Positions 15,411 through 59,368 of a stretch of DNA of 64,000 nt are shown here, piece by piece. Below the pieces are notes generated by a model. It made no database searches and was not told the DNA's origin. It worked only from the letters and a program-made list of their open reading frames with translations. Made by a program: the position numbers and the translations under genes. Origin of the DNA: Escherichia phage V18. Every line of letters starts with the position of its first letter. The stretch's first letter is position 1. The stretch is from the sequence record NC_041937.1; one strand, 5' to 3'.

Positions 15411-15689
15411 ATGAGCTGCGAAAAATCTTTTTTCATCATCATTTACGGTAAGGATAACTGCCCACACTGTGTCAGAGCAAAAGAATTTGCAATCAGCAAA
15501 GGTCTGCCTTTTGTATATAAGACACTTGGCGATGGCTACACAAAAGAAGAGCTTATTGAGAAGTGTAGTCCAATTGTCCCCAGAACGTTGCCGCAGATCT
15601 TCTTAGAAAGCGATCTTGACAGTATCCATATAGGCGGTGCCGACGATTTCATCTCTTTTGTTAAGAATGGTTTTGGAGAGAAAAAGTGA
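15411..15689 (+). CDS. glutaredoxin-like protein (NrdH/NrdC-type)
   Basis: 92 aa; CPHC redox motif near N-terminus. Confidence 0.75.
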   Translation: MSCEKSFFIIIYGKDNCPHCVRAKEFAISKGLPFVYKTLGDGYTKEELIEKCSPIVPRTLPQIFLESDLDSIHIGGADDFISFVKNGFGEKK

Positions 15690-16597
15690 AAGTTGTAAAA
15701 CGGGACGGTAGAGAAGAGTTCTATAACGGAATTAAGGTGATCAAGGCGGCAGAGTCCGCCTTACTTGAGTCTGGACATACTGAAGAAGAAGCTTACCGGA
15801 TCGCCTGCGCGGTTAATGAAGTTGTTGCTAACAATCTACCAACCGACCAGTGCACGATCTCTGTAAAAAATATCCATATCCTTGTTGAAGATGCTCTTAT
15901 GGATATGGGTTTAAAATGTGCAGCCAGAGAATACATCCAGTATAGACAGACAAGAGATAATAACAGAGAGGCAGGTGGAAAACTGCTTGCAGATATTAGT
16001 GGCTTCTTGGATCGAACTTGTGATGAATTTACAAAAGAAAACGCAAATAAGCCCACTAATCATGTACACACTCATCGTGACCTGCTTGCAGGCATCCTTA
16101 GCAAACACCTTGCATCAACACAGATCCTGCCAGACCGTGTTTCAGAAGAGCACAATAAAGGCTTCATCCATGTGCATGATCTTGACTACTTGATCAGTCC
16201 GTTAACAAACTGTTGTTTGGTAAATTATCCAGATATGTTGGAAAACGGATTCAACATTGGCAACGCCCATGTCAGTAAGCCGAAGTCAATAGGGGTTGCA
16301 ACAACAATCCTTAGCCAAATCTCTAGTGCGGTAGCTAGTGCTCAATATGGTGGTCAGACTATGAGCCATATTGATCATTATCTGGCACAGTATGCTGAAG
16401 CGACCTATGAGAAGAACCTTAAATTTTGCCAGGAACATTGGTTGCCAGATGCTGAGACTGTTGCAATGCAAATGACAGATAAAGACGTGTTTGACAGCAT
16501 GCAGACGTTGCTTTATCAGATCAACACACTAACCTCGGTAAACGGTAACCCCTTTTATCACATTAAGTTTAGGTTTGGACACTTCGGTCTTTGGTAG
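15686..16597 (+). CDS. nrdD: anaerobic ribonucleoside-triphosphate reductase, N-terminal segment
   Basis: ATP-cone N-terminus and NrdD-like body; frame lost near 16547, the last residues before the stop are out-of-frame. Confidence 0.8.
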   Translation: MKVVKRDGREEFYNGIKVIKAAESALLESGHTEEEAYRIACAVNEVVANNLPTDQCTISVKNIHILVEDALMDMGLKCAAREYIQYRQTRDNNREAGGKLLADISGFLDRTCDEFTKENANKPTNHVHTHRDLLAGILSKHLASTQILPDRVSEEHNKGFIHVHDLDYLISPLTNCCLVNYPDMLENGFNIGNAHVSKPKSIGVATTILSQISSAVASAQYGGQTMSHIDHYLAQYAEATYEKNLKFCQEHWLPDAETVAMQMTDKDVFDSMQTLLYQINTLTSVNGNPFYHIKFRFGHFGLW

Positions 16598-16796
16598 AAT
16601 GATTACCAAAAACTACCTGAAAGTCCACAAAATGGGTCTTGGTGAAGAACGTATTACACCTGTGTTCCCTAAAGTGCTGTTCTTCCTAGAAGAGGGTGTC
16701 AACATGAACCCTGGGGATCCTAACTACGATTTGAAACGATTAGCTCTGGAATGCTGTGCAGAACGTATCTACCTGACTTCGTATCTGTACCACTAA
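16575..16796 (+). CDS. nrdD: anaerobic ribonucleoside-triphosphate reductase, internal segment in a second frame
   Basis: GLGEERITPVFPK...GDPNYDLKRLALEC matches the NrdD core; frame lost again near 16773 and 16843. Confidence 0.6.
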   Translation: MDTSVFGRMITKNYLKVHKMGLGEERITPVFPKVLFFLEEGVNMNPGDPNYDLKRLALECCAERIYLTSYLYH

Positions 16797-16941
16797 ATAG
16801 AAAAGTGACAGGCTCGACAGATGGCAAAGTAACGAGCATGGGATATGTAGAAGTTTCTTATCGAAATATAGCGACCCTGTAACAGGCGAGGAGAAATACC
16901 TTGGCAGATTTAACTTAGGCGTTGTTAGCCTTAACCTGCCA

Positions 16942-17808
16942 ATGATTGCGGCAAAAGCTAAGACGGAAGGTGTTGATTTCTTTGCAGTTCTTGACGAATA
17001 CTTGGATCTTGCATACGAGGCTCACCTTGTAAGGGTTAATCGTCTAAAAGGAACAAAGGCGGGGCAGAACCCCATCATGTGGTGTGAAGGCGCTCTTGCT
17101 CGCCTGGATCCCGAAGAGAGTATTGATAAACTCTTCTATGACGGGTACGCTTCCATCAGTATTGGGTATATCGGTGTGTATGAAACCTGTCAGATTTTGG
17201 GTAGAGAAGGCGACAAGGCTTTAGCTCTTGGAATCCTTCAGCACATGAGAGATGCTTGTGAGCGATACAAGAAGGAAAGTAGACTAGCATTTAGCTTGTA
17301 CGGCACTCCTTCTGAGAGTCTATGCTATAAAGCTGCAACCTGTCTGGATCGTGAATATCCGGAAGTGTTGAAGCACGAGCATGAATATCTCACCAACAGT
17401 TTCCATCAGCCAGTATGGATAAATAGCTCTCCTTTTGATAAGTGGGAGTATGAGGAAGGTTTTGCTATGATCTCCTCTGGTGGCAACATCGGATACGTAG
17501 AGACACCTAACCTGAAAAACAACCTGGATGCTTTAGAGGCCCTTGTTGACTTCGGGTATAAACACATTATGTATTTTGGTATTAACCAACCTGTAGATAA
17601 ATGTCTCAAGTGTGGTTTCTCTGGTGAGTTCAGTGCAACAGCTAAAGGCTTTGTATGCCCAGAGTGTGGAAACCATGAAGAGGGAACGATCAGTGTAATT
17701 CGACGTGTGTCTGGATACCTTTCCAGTCCTAACTCCCGTCCTTACAATAAAGGTAAGCAAGCGGAAGTTATCGAGCGAGTTAAGCACTACGGAAGTTGTG
17801 GTTGCTGA
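16942..17808 (+). CDS. nrdD: anaerobic ribonucleoside-triphosphate reductase, C-terminal segment
   Basis: CLKCGF...CPECG zinc site and glycyl-radical region IRRVSGYL. Confidence 0.8.
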   Translation: MIAAKAKTEGVDFFAVLDEYLDLAYEAHLVRVNRLKGTKAGQNPIMWCEGALARLDPEESIDKLFYDGYASISIGYIGVYETCQILGREGDKALALGILQHMRDACERYKKESRLAFSLYGTPSESLCYKAATCLDREYPEVLKHEHEYLTNSFHQPVWINSSPFDKWEYEEGFAMISSGGNIGYVETPNLKNNLDALEALVDFGYKHIMYFGINQPVDKCLKCGFSGEFSATAKGFVCPECGNHEEGTISVIRRVSGYLSSPNSRPYNKGKQAEVIERVKHYGSCGC

Positions 17809-18461: not shown

Positions 18462-18491
18462 TTGACAAAGCTTGGTTTAGATAGGTATAAT
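18462..18491 (+). promoter_or_regulatory. sigma70-like promoter (TTGACA-18-TATAAT)
   Basis: -35 at 18462-18467, -10 at 18486-18491. Confidence 0.6.
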
Positions 18492-18522: not shown

Positions 18523-18636
18523 ATGGCTAAAAAAGCCTTGAAGAAGGCGTACAAAAAAGAGATTGCGCTTGAGCTTAAGAAAAAACACAAGCGTGAAAAG
18601 AAACATCATGAAGATGAAGAGGGGGTGCAACAGTGA
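18523..18636 (+). CDS. small lysine-rich protein (37 aa)
   Basis: GAGGAGG RBS 7 nt upstream; MAKKALKKAYKKEIALELKKKHKREKKHHEDEEGVQQ. Confidence 0.3.
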   Translation: MAKKALKKAYKKEIALELKKKHKREKKHHEDEEGVQQ

Positions 18637-18983
18637 CACAAGAACGTATCGATTTGGCTAATAAGTTTGTAGATCTCATTTTGCCACGGTTAGTTACTCA
18701 ACATGCAGATGCTATTTCTACTAATCTTGATGGCTTACGCCTAATGCTGAATCGCACAGATGACCCTCGTATTCGGGCTGATTTAGAAGCCTCTGCCAAC
18801 AAACTGGAAAAGTTCTTGCAAGTAGACACGCAAGAAGCCTTACACAAGATTATGGTGGAAGGTTTCTCTAAAGAATTTACCATTAAAGAGCTTAAGGAGC
18901 TGATCCACCAAGAAGAGATGAATATCCGAGTTCAGGCTGTTGCAAGCAGCATGGAAGCGGCTATTGAAAAACTGTTGCAGTAA
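18633..18983 (+). CDS. hypothetical protein
   Basis: 116 aa ORF, GTG start overlapping previous stop. Confidence 0.4.
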   Translation: MTQERIDLANKFVDLILPRLVTQHADAISTNLDGLRLMLNRTDDPRIRADLEASANKLEKFLQVDTQEALHKIMVEGFSKEFTIKELKELIHQEEMNIRVQAVASSMEAAIEKLLQ

Positions 18984-19021
18984 AAGTACTTGGCACATCT
19001 CAATCTGAAAGGAGTCCCAAC

Positions 19022-19387
19022 ATGGGTCGAGCTAAAGAAACAAAACGCATGCGTGATGAAGCTAGAGAGGCTCGCAAATCTGATCGCCTGCGTAAGGCTG
19101 CTGAGAAATTTGCTGACGAACGAGAGCACACTGCTCCAGCTCTCCGACCAATGAATAAGAAGCAGCAAAAGTATCTTGATTACCTAGGGTCGCGTAAAAT
19201 TATCATTGTAAACGGAGTGTTTGGGTCTGGTAAAACATTCATGGCATCTGCTATGCAGGTGACCTTCTGCGTAAGAATGAAATTGATAAGATCATTGTTG
19301 CACGTCCTTACGTTCAGACAGGAAAGACTTCAGGATTTAAACCTGGAAATGCAATGCAGAAACTGTGGCCCTATCTTCGAAGCATGA
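19022..19387 (+). CDS. phoH: PhoH-like ATPase, N-terminal segment (frame broken near 19255)
   Basis: Walker A GVFGSGKT; sequence after AMQ is out-of-frame. Confidence 0.7.
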   Translation: MGRAKETKRMRDEAREARKSDRLRKAAEKFADEREHTAPALRPMNKKQQKYLDYLGSRKIIIVNGVFGSGKTFMASAMQVTFCVRMKLIRSLLHVLTFRQERLQDLNLEMQCRNCGPIFEA

Positions 19388-19809
19388 TGGACACGATTTG
19401 TCGTCGTGTTGGCAAAGGTGCTTTTGCCGCAATGCTGGGAGACGGTCAGAACAGCCGTATCGAGATTTGTGAAGTTGAAAGCATTCGTGGTCGTAGTTTC
19501 GATGAGCGATGCTTTGTCCTGATTGACGAGGCACAGCAAACTAACCCTGAAGAAATGTTGTCAATTATCACAAGGATCTCTGATCAAGCCACCCTTGTAA
19601 TTATGGGTGATAATAGCCAACGTGACATCCCTGGTAAATCTGGCCTTGCATGGGTGACGGATTTCTTTACTCGTCATCCAGATCCTGAGGTTGGAATGAT
19701 CAGCTTTGATAGTCCAGACGATGTCGTTCGTTCTGGGTTGGGTCGTCAGATCGCACTCAATCTTATTGAGGATCGTGCAAATCATATTTGGACCCCTGTT
19801 TCCGAGTAA
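19354..19809 (+). CDS. phoH: PhoH-like ATPase, C-terminal segment
   Basis: VLIDEAQ (Walker B) and IMGDNSQRDIPG match PhoH; this frame extends upstream to ~19258. Confidence 0.7.
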   Translation: MQKLWPYLRSMMDTICRRVGKGAFAAMLGDGQNSRIEICEVESIRGRSFDERCFVLIDEAQQTNPEEMLSIITRISDQATLVIMGDNSQRDIPGKSGLAWVTDFFTRHPDPEVGMISFDSPDDVVRSGLGRQIALNLIEDRANHIWTPVSE

Positions 19810-19853: not shown

Positions 19854-19882
19854 TTGACAAATAGGTAAGCTTTAGATATTAT
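19854..19882 (+). promoter_or_regulatory. sigma70-like promoter (TTGACA-17-TATTAT)
   Basis: -35 at 19854-19859, -10 at 19877-19882. Confidence 0.6.
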
Positions 19883-22231: not shown

Positions 22232-22471
22232 ATGTACAAGTCATTTTCAATTTACTCAAGACAGGGGAAACACTACACAGAGATCCTGATCACTCAGAAA
22301 AAATCTGTAGAAGGTGAGTGGGAATATCACCATAAAATGTTGCGTCCAGATTGGGTTTTTGATAGACTTATTGCCATGATCCCTCTTGGAGAAGTATATC
22401 CTCTGACAGGCGGGAGGGATGTTTGGGATTTAATTGCTTACATAGATTCATTTAAGGAGCCCAGTGTATGA
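22232..22471 (+). CDS. hypothetical protein
   Basis: RBS AAGGGGGAG before ATG 22232. Confidence 0.35.
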   Translation: MYKSFSIYSRQGKHYTEILITQKKSVEGEWEYHHKMLRPDWVFDRLIAMIPLGEVYPLTGGRDVWDLIAYIDSFKEPSV

Positions 22472-22869
22472 AGATTGAGATCACCAAAGAAGGCAAGAAA
22501 GTGTCTGGCGACTATGCAACAGTAATTCGGGATTTAATGTTTGAAGCCACCAAGATCGGTACATCTAAAGTTGGTCAAACTGTTAGTGTGCAAAGTAATA
22601 TCGCCACAGGAGAGAAGGTATTCATTGTGGTCAAAGGGCAGGATCCTGTGGAAGGAACAGTGGGCCGAGGAGGTTACCTGTGCATTTCTGAAGAGCCTCG
22701 TATGCTAGTGGCTGACTCCGCTACTATAGGTGGGAAACGTGTGTGCGAGGCGGATGAGGTAATGATTATCCAGCCTGTTGACCCAGATGATCCAGCAACT
22801 TGGGTGGTAGGAAATGAAATCTTCTCTTTAGAAGAGTTATCCTTCCCAGCCCCGCGCTCTGTTCAGTAA
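22468..22869 (+). CDS. hypothetical protein
   Basis: 133 aa, ATGA coupling, N-terminus MKIEITKEG. Confidence 0.4.
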   Translation: MKIEITKEGKKVSGDYATVIRDLMFEATKIGTSKVGQTVSVQSNIATGEKVFIVVKGQDPVEGTVGRGGYLCISEEPRMLVADSATIGGKRVCEADEVMIIQPVDPDDPATWVVGNEIFSLEELSFPAPRSVQ

Positions 22870-27490: not shown

Positions 27491-27670
27491 ATGATTGTTT
27501 ATTTTAAAACTTCAGGTGGATACCCTGATTCTCAAAGCTTGATCGGAAAAACGTGCACAGCATACTCACCTCTTGATGAGGAGGTAAGCGATATTCTACG
27601 AAATATGTATCGGATTGACCCCCAAGAAGCTTTGATCAAAACCTTGTATTTGTCAAGGGCTCAGATATGA
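27491..27670 (+). CDS. hypothetical small protein (59 aa)
   Basis: RBS GAGGTGA before ATG 27491; below the ORF-track size cutoff. Confidence 0.3.
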   Translation: MIVYFKTSGGYPDSQSLIGKTCTAYSPLDEEVSDILRNMYRIDPQEALIKTLYLSRAQI

Positions 27671-30547: not shown

Positions 30548-30575
30548 TTTAAAACAACATAAGGAGACTCTTACT

Positions 30576-30881
30576 ATGGCTAAATCTAAAGTTGAACTGT
30601 TCACCTCTCTTCCTTCTGACACTGCAGAACGTGATCGCCTTCGCAAAACAATCGAAGAACTGGTGGAACTCCAGCTTCAGATTAAAGACCTGAAAGATGC
30701 CATCAAGGATATCATTCTCGTTGAGAAGCAGGATCATCTATATTCTCCTAAATTCATCAAATCTCTGGTGGCTACAGAGTTTGATATCCGCTACGAAGCT
30801 GAAAAACGTCGCGCTAAGATTGAAGAAGAGGTTGAGCACATGTCTGAGGCAGACATTCTGTTCAAACGCTCTGTAGAATAA
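30576..30881 (+). CDS. hypothetical coiled-coil protein
   Basis: 101 aa; RBS AAGGAGA; followed by strong terminator. Confidence 0.45.
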   Translation: MAKSKVELFTSLPSDTAERDRLRKTIEELVELQLQIKDLKDAIKDIILVEKQDHLYSPKFIKSLVATEFDIRYEAEKRRAKIEEEVEHMSEADILFKRSVE

Positions 30882-30886
30882 TGACA

Positions 30887-30913
30887 AAAAGAGGGGCCCA
30901 AGCCCCTCTTTTT
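30887..30913 (+). terminator. intrinsic terminator
   Basis: agaggggc-ccaa-gcccctct hairpin then ttttt. Confidence 0.65.
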
Positions 30914-30936
30914 ACTATCTATGAAGGAGATTTGAG

Positions 30937-31263
30937 ATGGGTATACCGATCACTGTAAAAGAATTGAATGAACGTGATGCAGGCGGTCTATGGCCTGCAC
31001 GAAAAATACGCTGCGTCTATATGAAAGAGAATCTTGAACATCTTGATCAACAGATAAAGGTCGGCGATATTTTCGAGGTCTTCTATTCCAATCGGCGCAA
31101 CTGGGAAACCATTCAGCCTTCTGGTTTTGTTCTTGCCAAACTTGACACTGGAGAAGTGATTATCCCTGGGTTGGATATTGTCTTCGAAATTATCCAGGAG
31201 TGGGATCCGGATAAGATTAGATACGAAGAACTATTCGGTAAAGGTATTATCAAACCTGTGTGA
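30937..31263 (+). CDS. hypothetical protein
   Basis: 108 aa; RBS GAAGGAGA. Confidence 0.4.
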   Translation: MGIPITVKELNERDAGGLWPARKIRCVYMKENLEHLDQQIKVGDIFEVFYSNRRNWETIQPSGFVLAKLDTGEVIIPGLDIVFEIIQEWDPDKIRYEELFGKGIIKPV

Positions 31264-35652: not shown

Positions 35653-35744
35653 GATGTTTACCTCTTTATGAGGTTCTGGTTTGGTGTGGGCCTTTTGGCC
35701 CGTGTCATTATCTTATTACTTACGGCGGCAAAATTCAAGTGTTT

Positions 35745-35987
35745 TTAATTGATAATCTTCCTCAGCTTGGAGTACAACCGCTCGATCATTTCGTTGGCAT
35801 TGGTGAAGCCATACCCTTGAGCGAACTCATCCGCGCCACCTTCGTGATCATGTTCTGCGTTCATCGCTTCCACAAAATGGAATTCAAGATTATTGAGGTA
35901 AGGGCTTGATGTTCCGTCCTCTTTTTCGATGAGATCCCAGATAGCATTAAAACGTGATTCAACTTCTTGATTAATCCAGCTTGACAT
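35745..35987 (-). CDS. hypothetical acidic protein
   Basis: 80 aa; RBS AGAGAGGAAA. Confidence 0.4.
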   Translation of the reverse strand: MSSWINQEVESRFNAIWDLIEKEDGTSSPYLNNLEFHFVEAMNAEHDHEGGADEFAQGYGFTNANEMIERLYSKLRKIIN

Positions 35988-56515: not shown

Positions 56516-58222
56516 TTAAAAAGGCGTTTCATCATCCTCAAAACCAGGGACCGGGTCAGAGGATGGATCATCGTACTGGAGGTCTTCCTGCGTGTCAACA
56601 GGCTTAACAGTAGGAGTTACAACCTTATCAGCCACAACCTTGCCCATAGGTGTTTCTACAACTGCATGCTCCTGATCCTCAAACATAGCCTGAGGTCTCC
56701 AAACAACCTCCCCGCCTTCTCCGTCTGTAAACATTTGCATTTCTTTGTCCCAGTACCAATTACTGGCATCATGGAACTTACCTGTGTGCGGGTCCATAAC
56801 CAAAGTGTCAGCAATACCTAGAGTTTTTGCTGGACGGTTTTTAAGACCTACCAGACGGACACGTCCACGAGAACGATCCACCATTTCTTCGGCCTCGACA
56901 CCTATGACTACCCAACTCAACTGTTCAAGCCCAGCCGATCCTCGCAAATTCTCTTTTCGCACAGGATACCAGAAAGGTAACGGGTTACCATCCTTGTCCT
57001 TAGGAGGCACAATCTCTGTACGTTTGAGGTGAGCGATCACCAAGATAAACACATTAAACTGCTTACAAAACGCAGCCAGTTGGGTCATAGCCATGTCCAG
57101 TTCTTTTCGCTCATCCTTAACATTAAGCCCTGAAATTACCATGGACAGGTGATCCAGCACAATATAACGACAATGGTACAGGCAAACCATTTGCTTAAGC
57201 TTGGTAATCAACTCGTCCACCGGAATAGACCCGAAATGTTTGAACACTTTGATTTTTCCAGCTTTTGCCCATGATTGGTGAATCTCTGCGTGTTCTTGAT
57301 CAGTTAAAAACTGGCTAGGATCTTCAACAAACTCTTTAACATCAAACCCTAACTGGTTTGCATACAAGGAGTTAATTGCTTCCTCTGGGTCCTCCTCAAG
57401 ATGGATCATGCATAGACGATCATCCTCTTCATAGTCATCAGCCTTCGGGCATGTCGGGTCCATTAGGTATCTTGCAATACAGTGTTCCAGTTTTTTAGCC
57501 ACGGTTGTTTTACCGCCCCCTGATGGCCCTGTAAGCATTACGAGTGTCCCTTTGTGCAAGCCTTTTAGCATTTTTTGCAGTTTTGGGAACTCTGCGCTGA
57601 TATCTACCCCGTTGGAAGTCTTTTTCCGCAAAGACTCGATAGAGAAGTCTTCTAAATCCGACACAGCATCAGGCACATATTTAACAGGATGCCGGAACAT
57701 GTTGACAATATCTTCCAGCTTTTTAGCCTTCAGCATGTCACGGATATCTTTTACACCGTCAGGATCGTTTACCTCACCGGGGTATTCTACGTGGTAAACG
57801 TTATCAGCCATCAAAAATGCTGCAATATTGTGCGTGGCCTCGACACCTTTAATGACGTGTTTTTGCTTCTCTACCTCGTTAGCTGCATCGTTATCCATTG
57901 CCAGCACAACTGTTCCATAGCTACGGATAAACTTCTCATTGTTTGCAAAAGTATCTACTGCGTTTGCACATCCACAGTTAATTCCAACAAAAGGTAGGCA
58001 AGGTTTTCCTGCCAGATCACCACCGTTGATAACTGCGTCGATCCCGTCCTGGACCTCTTTAGCCCACTGCTTCACCTTTGCCGGGGCTTTAGCGTTGGTG
58101 AGAATCCCTTTTACTTGTATCTGATATGCAGCCTGCCATGCTGCAATAACATCACCTTCTCCCTCACAAACGTTAATCTGCTTACGGTTGTTGGAAGATG
58201 CACACAGCTTTTGACCAAACAT
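56516..58222 (-). CDS. primase-helicase (T7 gp4-like): TOPRIM plus DnaB-family helicase
   Basis: 568 aa; TOPRIM VLAMDNDAANE; Walker A TGPSGGGKT; acidic C-terminus ending EDDETPF. Confidence 0.85.
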   Translation of the reverse strand: MFGQKLCASSNNRKQINVCEGEGDVIAAWQAAYQIQVKGILTNAKAPAKVKQWAKEVQDGIDAVINGGDLAGKPCLPFVGINCGCANAVDTFANNEKFIRSYGTVVLAMDNDAANEVEKQKHVIKGVEATHNIAAFLMADNVYHVEYPGEVNDPDGVKDIRDMLKAKKLEDIVNMFRHPVKYVPDAVSDLEDFSIESLRKKTSNGVDISAEFPKLQKMLKGLHKGTLVMLTGPSGGGKTTVAKKLEHCIARYLMDPTCPKADDYEEDDRLCMIHLEEDPEEAINSLYANQLGFDVKEFVEDPSQFLTDQEHAEIHQSWAKAGKIKVFKHFGSIPVDELITKLKQMVCLYHCRYIVLDHLSMVISGLNVKDERKELDMAMTQLAAFCKQFNVFILVIAHLKRTEIVPPKDKDGNPLPFWYPVRKENLRGSAGLEQLSWVVIGVEAEEMVDRSRGRVRLVGLKNRPAKTLGIADTLVMDPHTGKFHDASNWYWDKEMQMFTDGEGGEVVWRPQAMFEDQEHAVVETPMGKVVADKVVTPTVKPVDTQEDLQYDDPSSDPVPGFEDDETPF

Positions 58223-58239
58223 CTGGGAGTTGGCCTTTA

Positions 58240-58509
58240 CTATGCTACTACAGACCAGTGCCCTTTCTGCTCTTTCGGCTTAGACCAGTCACGCTTTTTG
58301 AAACCAGACAGATTTCCGTAGCGGTCGTAATATGGGAAATATGTTGCAGTGACTGTCACACCGTCTTCTTGGGACAATGCTGATCGCACACCAAAATATT
58401 GTGCAGCCATCAGACCGATATTTTGTTGTGGGACAGGGACAATTTTAGTATTTTCTAAAACAGTCTCTACAGTTTCAACCTCTTTTTCATCACGATAGTC
58501 TCGTTTCAT
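58240..58509 (-). CDS. primase RNA-polymerase-domain N-terminal segment, frame-separated from the primase-helicase
   Basis: RSALSQEDG...YDRYGNLSGFKKRD resembles the T7 gp4 segment YSALTARGIS...YRDQNGNIVSQKVRD; no Cys4 zinc-binding domain. Confidence 0.55.
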   Translation of the reverse strand: MKRDYRDEKEVETVETVLENTKIVPVPQQNIGLMAAQYFGVRSALSQEDGVTVTATYFPYYDRYGNLSGFKKRDWSKPKEQKGHWSVVA

Positions 58510-58582
58510 ACTACCCCCACTTTTGTATCTTGTTGCAACTGGGTTAGGTTCTCCATAGCGGCTATATGCAGAGGATATAAAC

Positions 58583-59368
58583 TTATTCCCCTCTCCTTAC
58601 TACAGGCTCGTTTGCTAAGAATACAGCTTTTGCCCAGCCACGTGGTGTGAGGCTTCGAATCATCTTCGTTCTTGCACTCTTTCCACCAAGCTTGGCGTGT
58701 TGCATGGAATACCCGCTAACCACGTCAACTATTTGCGGGACAGGTTTTGTGTCCGGGATTATAAATCCATTACCTATCCAGCCGCAAGTTATTTTTGGAT
58801 AGGCATCACGTGGAGCTATAAATTCAGGAAACCATGGGTTTACATCATCCTCAGGTAAATACCCGCCATAGTCAGAAGGATGAAAACGGTAATCAGGTTT
58901 GCGCCACAGTGTGGACATAACACCAACAGGATTCTCTACATGCCACGGGCAATCGTAAATCTCTCCCAGCTCTTCCGCAACCCGAGCATCCTTTACAGCA
59001 TTAATTTGGATCATGGGGTCCTTAGCCAGCTTTTTCTTAAAATGTGCAGCACCCGATACCGCTAAATGCGTGCACGGAGGAAATGCAAGAATAAAGTCTG
59101 GAGCTGGATACATGCAAAAAGTTTCCTGAGGGAACCACGGGTCAATCCAATAGTCAACATAGTGAATGTTGGGATGATCGGTTATCACCTCTGCATAACT
59201 GCCGTGATCAGCACCTTCTGCGTTAAAGCACAGGCACAGATATCCAGCTTTTGCCCAGTCAATGACTGCACCACCAGACCCGTCAAATAGACTCCACACA
59301 ACACCTTTGTGGTAGTGTTCTTTGTAGATAAATTTCAATTTGCTGTCTCCTAATGCAAAAAGCCCCAC
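58583..59368 (-). CDS. putative DNA cytosine-5 methyltransferase-like protein
   Basis: 261 aa; SLFDGSGG (motif I-like), FPPCTH (PC motif), HVENPVG (ENV motif). Confidence 0.5.
   Translation of the reverse strand: MGLFALGDSKLKFIYKEHYHKGVVWSLFDGSGGAVIDWAKAGYLCLCFNAEGADHGSYAEVITDHPNIHYVDYWIDPWFPQETFCMYPAPDFILAFPPCTHLAVSGAAHFKKKLAKDPMIQINAVKDARVAEELGEIYDCPWHVENPVGVMSTLWRKPDYRFHPSDYGGYLPEDDVNPWFPEFIAPRDAYPKITCGWIGNGFIIPDTKPVPQIVDVVSGYSMQHAKLGGKSARTKMIRSLTPRGWAKAVFLANEPVVRRGE

Follow-up and report, generated by a model that had tools for sequence, protein, structure and literature searches.

The PhoH-like gene of the vequintaviruses is already known. In Murica (CPT_Murica108, AKU44200.1), JohannBauhin (bas53_0176), FV3 (ORF112) and rV5-type phages, the PhoH-like ATPase is encoded by the same 262 codons at the same locus, between the small ORFs on the nrdG side and a ClpP-like protease, and the V18 gene is placed likewise. 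PDB entry 3B85, a 'phosphate starvation-inducible protein' of Corynebacterium glutamicum that belongs to PF02562, has the same P-loop NTPase core, with GSGKT in Walker A and DEAQ in Walker B. The phage PhoH-like protein differs from these bacterial proteins in carrying a basic N-terminal extension of roughly 40 residues and in lacking PIN and KH domains.

Phage V18 (KY683736.1, 129 kb) comes from patient faeces in Moscow and has been used in phage-therapy studies (PMC13304965; PMC7431101). The window analysed here is a stretch of 64,000 nucleotides of its RefSeq record, NC_041937.1, and all coordinates refer to it. V18 is an rV5-like member of the genus Vequintavirus, and the DNA around its phoH shows 98.5-99% identity to that of more than 100 such phages. 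In the deposited record the gene is listed as two separate CDSs, V18_00118 and V18_00119.

The lesion was placed by alignment with nimi, Murica, JohannBauhin, rV5_ev147, JES2013, Mangalyan and FV3. From start to stop the V18 gene spans 788 nt, against 789 nt (262 codons) in the relatives, and the missing base lies between 19251 and 19252, where it would be the third base of Ala77 (GCA), five codons past the Walker A motif GVFGSGKT. At the junction V18 reads GCATCTGC^TATGCAGG and the relatives read GCATCTGCATATGCAGG (GCC in JES2013); in codons, GCA TCT GC^ TAT GCA GGT stands against GCA TCT GCA TAT GCA GGT. The original prediction, made from the letters of the window, had proposed that phoH is split by a single-base frame change right after the Walker A motif, within 19245-19265, and that a one-nucleotide deletion near 19255 accounts for both ORFs. 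Both proposals hold, with the exact place now set at 19251^19252 and the repaired product having the amino acid sequence of the relatives.

The gene is on the + strand, as are all the features around it described here. Its 5' part in the original frame (19022..19251) comprises codons 1-76 and the GC of Ala77, whereas the 3' part (19252..19809), which comprises codons 78-262 and the stop, is displaced by -1. The first ORF in the record (ORF1, 19022..19387, 121 aa) starts as MGRAKE...NGVFGSGKTFMASAM and then passes into out-of-frame QVTFCVRMKL..., with a stop at 19385-19387; it corresponds residue for residue to the 'hypothetical protein' V18_00118 (ASJ80468.1, YP_009602340.1). Its residues 78-121 are out of frame, in keeping with the earlier reading of this ORF as GVFGSGKT followed by sequence from the wrong frame. 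One base back, the frame is closed by TAA at 19231-19233, is open from 19234 and reads ...YAGDLLRKNEIDKIIVARPYVQTGKTSGFKPGN... until the stop at 19807-19809, so that the frame of the second ORF does extend upstream to give the expected PhoH continuation. From its first ATG this second ORF (ORF2, 19354..19809) has 151 aa and no P-loop, and the GenBank CDS V18_00119 starts at the ATG at 19384 (141 aa).

Restoring one A gives a 262-aa product. Membership of PF02562 (PhoH) was judged by the Pfam gathering score of 27 bits together with a match over most of the domain; for the repaired protein the match reaches 160.9 bits (E 3.6e-47) and takes in positions 2-201 of the 205-position profile. Unrepaired, ORF1 scores 29 bits over positions 2-49, which are matched by the 5' part, and ORF2 scores 87 bits over positions 74-201. 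A chance pairing of the two ORFs is ruled out by these matches, which fall on successive parts of the profile and become one stretch upon repair. The repaired protein also matches PHROG 170, 'PhoH-like phosphate starvation-inducible' (E 3.8e-75). Its residues 40-221 align to PDB 3B85 (E 2.8e-27) with no gap over the junction, where GSGKTFMASAYAGDLL... faces GSGKTYLAMAKAVQAL...; the alignment to PhoH that had been suggested as a check thus runs end to end in Pfam and continuously against 3B85. The pattern GxxxxGK[ST] of Walker A is present as GVFGSGKT (codons 65-72, 19214..19237), which aligns to GPAGSGKT of 3B85. Walker B, four hydrophobic residues and DE with a conserved Q, is present in the downstream frame as VLIDEAQ (19516-19536); its core VLIDE (19516..19530) lies within CFVLIDEAQ and aligns to VILDEAQ of 3B85. 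The repaired product is, on these matches, a full PhoH-like P-loop ATPase of predicted activity. In the record as it stands, the two Walker motifs do not share one uninterrupted frame, the frame changing at 19251^19252.

Upstream of the gene, a Shine-Dalgarno-like AAAGGAG (19009..19015) lies 6 nt 5' of the phoH ATG at 19022, and Murica has an annotated RBS at the homologous place. A perfect sigma-70-type consensus, TTGACA-18-TATAAT, is found at 18462..18491 as a consensus match only, and it is likely the promoter of a small operon made up of an ORF at 18523..18636, an ORF at 18633..18983 and then phoH. The gene order of small ORFs followed by phoH is as annotated in the relatives, with phoH the third ORF after 18462-18491. 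A second strong promoter-like site, again a consensus match only, lies at 19854, ahead of the next gene.

Across the relatives the gene is whole. More than 100 of them carry an intact PhoH-like gene of 789 nt (262 codons), and a single 789-nt CDS is annotated in every relative inspected, under a PhoH-like label in seven. When 211 nt of V18 (19150-19360) were used as the query, all 60 of the full-length phage matches listed spanned 212 nt. The four IMG/VR loci are likewise intact, with residues 1-262 matched contiguously. No indication that the split is common to relatives was found in 119-175 phage records, in IMG/VR or in JGI/ENA metagenome contigs, and the inspected relatives all have the one 789-nt CDS; the split is therefore no shared feature of the group, which would have spoken for a true pseudogene. 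When the palindrome described below was looked for as an exact pattern with 2 nt between its arms, no match was found in IMG/VR or in the metagenome collection. The 49 matches of the metagenome scan all had 3 nt between the arms, and the majority came from unrelated sequences centred on GAT or AAT.

Several labels near this gene are displaced in other records. By an annotation slip, the records of nimi (nimi_32) and magaca (magaca_40) give the name 'PhoH-like protein' to the 103-aa ORF downstream of phoH as well. Product names are shifted by one gene in rV5_ev147 and rV5_ev168, where a 116-aa ORF bears the name 'PhoH-like protein' and the real phoH is called a 'hypothetical protein'.

Two overlapping frames, the second at -1 relative to the first, could in principle be joined by programmed recoding, either a -1 ribosomal frameshift or transcriptional slippage that fuses both ORFs into a functional PhoH. 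A canonical heptamer, T_TTA_AAC, does occur at 19336-19342 in the register of ORF1, inside the 154-nt zone in which both frames are open. It is, however, the only slippery heptamer of the form X_XXY_YYZ in that zone and lies 85 nt past the junction; none is present at the junction itself (19234-19260), and the zone contains no homopolymer of 5 or more bases. With a shift at 19336, out-of-frame sequence would stand in place of 29 conserved residues (YAGDLL...GKTSGF). Moreover, TTTAAAC simply supplies the codons of a conserved Gly-Phe-Lys-Pro (GFKP) and is found in all of the unsplit relatives, where no shift is called for. A single frame encodes the protein in more than 100 relatives, so the two-frame arrangement is not conserved, and in the sole other split allele a different base is affected. 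A programmed frameshift was rejected because its sole heptamer is misplaced and is present in unsplit relatives, and recoding of either kind is considered extremely improbable.

Hardly any credence is given, either, to the view that the two CDSs listed by GenBank and RefSeq are genes with functions of their own, whose products, an N-terminal piece with the P-loop and a C-terminal piece, act together as a split ATPase. The annotation of V18_00118 and V18_00119 as two CDSs is what speaks for it. Against it, the final 44 residues of ORF1 are out of frame, ORF2 has neither a convincing RBS nor a Walker A motif, and the architecture is absent from the relatives, except in one metagenomic contig that has its own independent deletion.

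This contig is ENA ERZ27290372 k141_1044056 (L008; 137,975 bp), and P0002 is its phoH product; a word-based protein search with ORF1 gave P0002 and P0018 only and added little. Other candidates were rejected as further split alleles: ERZ28614541 (L009), in which the apparent break is a scaffold gap of Ns, and P0018 (98 aa) and L072-L074, whose genes are cut by contig ends. In L008 the frameshift lies at 3225-3240 of the contig and reads GCAT-TGCAGG, the A of TAT having been deleted 2 nt downstream of the V18 deletion (GC-TATGCAGG in V18). Both deletions hit the middle of CTGCATATGCAG, a perfect palindrome of 12 bp that has CATATG within it and is found intact in the relatives; in V18 its remnant is CTGC-TATGCAG (19248..19258), with the A missing at 19251/19252. 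Judged by its MEGAHIT-type contig name, L008 appears to be a short-read-style assembly, and no further private frameshift was found in the 5.2 kb that was compared. At 868-1800, between nrdD and a small ORF upstream of nrdG, L008 also carries a 310-aa ORF with DUF723 / T5orf172 matches (homing-endonuclease-like), which has no counterpart in V18 at that place.

To weigh the missing base in V18 as a record error, the whole window was compared with rV5_ev168, Murica and EmilHeitz, each genome in turn being taken as focal. Over the 38.4 kb or so that the three other genomes all cover, V18 has 24 private frame-breaking indels (18 deletions and 6 insertions), against 3, 9 and 6 in the relatives. Private indels that break an ORF under a symmetric repair test number 10 in V18 and 0, 1 and 1 in the others, and conserved ORF families split over two or more frames number 8-9 against 2, 0 and 0. 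In a 24-kb sub-region compared with four relatives, four 1-nt deletions are strictly private to V18, and every one of them lies in a conserved ORF, whereas the relatives have none or one, located between CDSs by their own annotation. Two larger genes are among those affected in V18. The replicative primase/helicase (56516-58600, - strand) has a private 1-nt deletion after 58244 (GCC to GC); the protein has 692 aa in rV5_ev168 and EmilHeitz, whereas V18 as deposited encodes a 568-aa ORF and an 89-aa upstream piece, and insertion of a C yields a 664-aa ORF from the first ATG. The anaerobic ribonucleotide reductase gene nrdD (15686-17808, + strand) has 2123 nt, against 2124 nt in Murica, and falls into three ORFs; set against the Murica gene, it is short of 2 nt at 16545 and of 1 nt at 16771 and has 2 extra nt at about 16843, and its surroundings are a divergent patch.

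Other observations were made in the course of this comparison. The 2-nt gap at 16545 lies within a few bases of the HNH homing-endonuclease insertion in EmilHeitz, magaca and bov10K2, by a coordinate estimate from the annotated exon boundary. Further V18-private 1-2-nt indels are found at 27633, 27894, 29959, 31556, 31813, 35727-35781, 39884, 40436/40559 and 43220, and the small ORFs that they split are intact in three or four relatives. At 8579-8585 V18 has a private 7-nt insertion relative to three relatives, where a small ORF of 71 aa as deposited would have 25 aa without the insertion.

Because the V18 record holds an excess of private frameshifts, an error is favoured, and we infer that the missing base is probably an uncorrected single-base deletion in the deposited assembly KY683736. 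An error-prone consensus is also the simpler account, since a viable phage with many broken conserved genes, a core replication gene included, is unlikely; a broken primase/helicase in the viable V18 suggests errors in the record. If the base was lost in this way, the true V18 phoH would be intact and its predicted 262-aa PhoH-like ATPase would be made normally. One base dropped in assembly would have moved the frame by -1, and gene callers would then have seen a 121-aa N-terminal and a 141/151-aa C-terminal piece. PMC13304965 and PMC7431101 give the accession, origin and 129-kb size only, and not the sequencing platform of V18.

Homopolymers are the classic context of indel errors. The base missing from phoH lies outside any homopolymer, which counts against an error and in favour of a genuine, very recent loss of function, in which the base is truly absent from the V18 stock, phoH has only just become a pseudogene and V18 can do without its PhoH-like ATPase under the conditions of its propagation. 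We regard such a loss as possible rather than probable. It gains from L008, which carries an independent deletion 2 nt away and is otherwise free of private frameshifts; as an independent short-read-style contig, it argues that real frameshifts occur at the phoH palindrome. The chance that a random V18 error would fall within 2 nt of the L008 deletion is estimated at about 0.3% (5 positions x 24/38,429). Of the 24 private indels of V18, 17 are concentrated between 32 and 48 kb, in a region of small accessory ORFs, and with such clustering some of them are probably real. On the other side, the same record has the primase/helicase and a further 8-9 conserved ORFs broken, which is hard to square with a viable phage if all of the breaks are real.

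Selection on the gene bears on the same choice. The repaired V18 protein has 100% amino acid identity to the PhoH proteins of nimi, JohannBauhin, rV5_ev147, JES2013, Mangalyan and FV3, and the 14-32 nucleotide differences between V18 phoH and those six genes are all synonymous. With no amino acid change despite 14-32 nucleotide differences, purifying selection on phoH must be very strong across the genus, and this extreme constraint, like the intact phoH of more than 100 isolates, weighs against a genuine loss. The 3' part of V18 phoH is likewise without decay, and there is therefore no relaxed selection downstream of the lesion. By this measure the V18 lesion would be either very young or not real, and the undecayed gene is also what a genuine but very young loss would leave.

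Under a genuine loss, a mutational hot spot may lie at the centre of CTGCATATGCAG. A stronger proposal is judged unlikely, namely that this centre is by nature prone to single-base deletions and gives rise again and again to PhoH-null variants, of which V18 and the ERZ27290372 phage would be two. Perfect palindromes of at least 12 bp are about as frequent as chance predicts (20 observed, about 16 expected), and CATATG shows no enrichment, with 9 occurrences against about 19 expected. Were the proposal true, the PhoH-null state might be favoured in certain settings, for example as an escape from a PhoH-sensing host defence or as relief from a costly accessory ATPase.

The lesion is surrounded by a patch of V18-private substitutions. 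Within 19121..19293 (173 bp) there are 14 of them, all synonymous, 13 being at third codon positions and one being a CGA/AGA exchange, whereas outside this interval no more than 2-6 differences in about 1,500 positions set V18 apart from its closest relatives. Equally dense V18-private patches occur at about 16700-17050, 22250-22600 and 30550-30950, with 10-13 private substitutions per 200 nt in a background that is otherwise 97-99% identical. Engineering of the 19121-19293 patch, or gene conversion around a nuclease cut, was rejected in view of the similar patches at three other places in 24 kb. The patches look like ordinary recombinational mosaicism from unsampled relatives, and the one in phoH does not appear to be linked to the deletion.

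For annotation, V18_00118 and V18_00119 of GenBank and RefSeq amount to one PhoH-like gene annotated as two. The main value of the case lies in curation, as the V18 record seems to hold many other frame-breaking single-base indels, and a record that is seemingly this rich in indels is due for resequencing before comparative or safety use. Should the lesion be real, an otherwise invariant PhoH-like ATPase would be dispensable for vequintavirus growth, which would be a small but useful fact.

Set beside the systems already described, the locus is a single, strongly conserved vequintavirus PhoH-like gene with an ordinary single-base lesion, and not a new kind of system. V18 differs from the other vequintavirus PhoH genes in having 788 rather than 789 nt, two ORFs in place of one, and a private patch of 14 synonymous substitutions. 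The phoH allele of L008 resembles that of V18 in its 1-nt deletion within the same 12-bp palindrome and in the resulting 121-aa and 141-aa ORFs, but differs from it in the base that is deleted and in a background that is free of the synonymous patch of V18.
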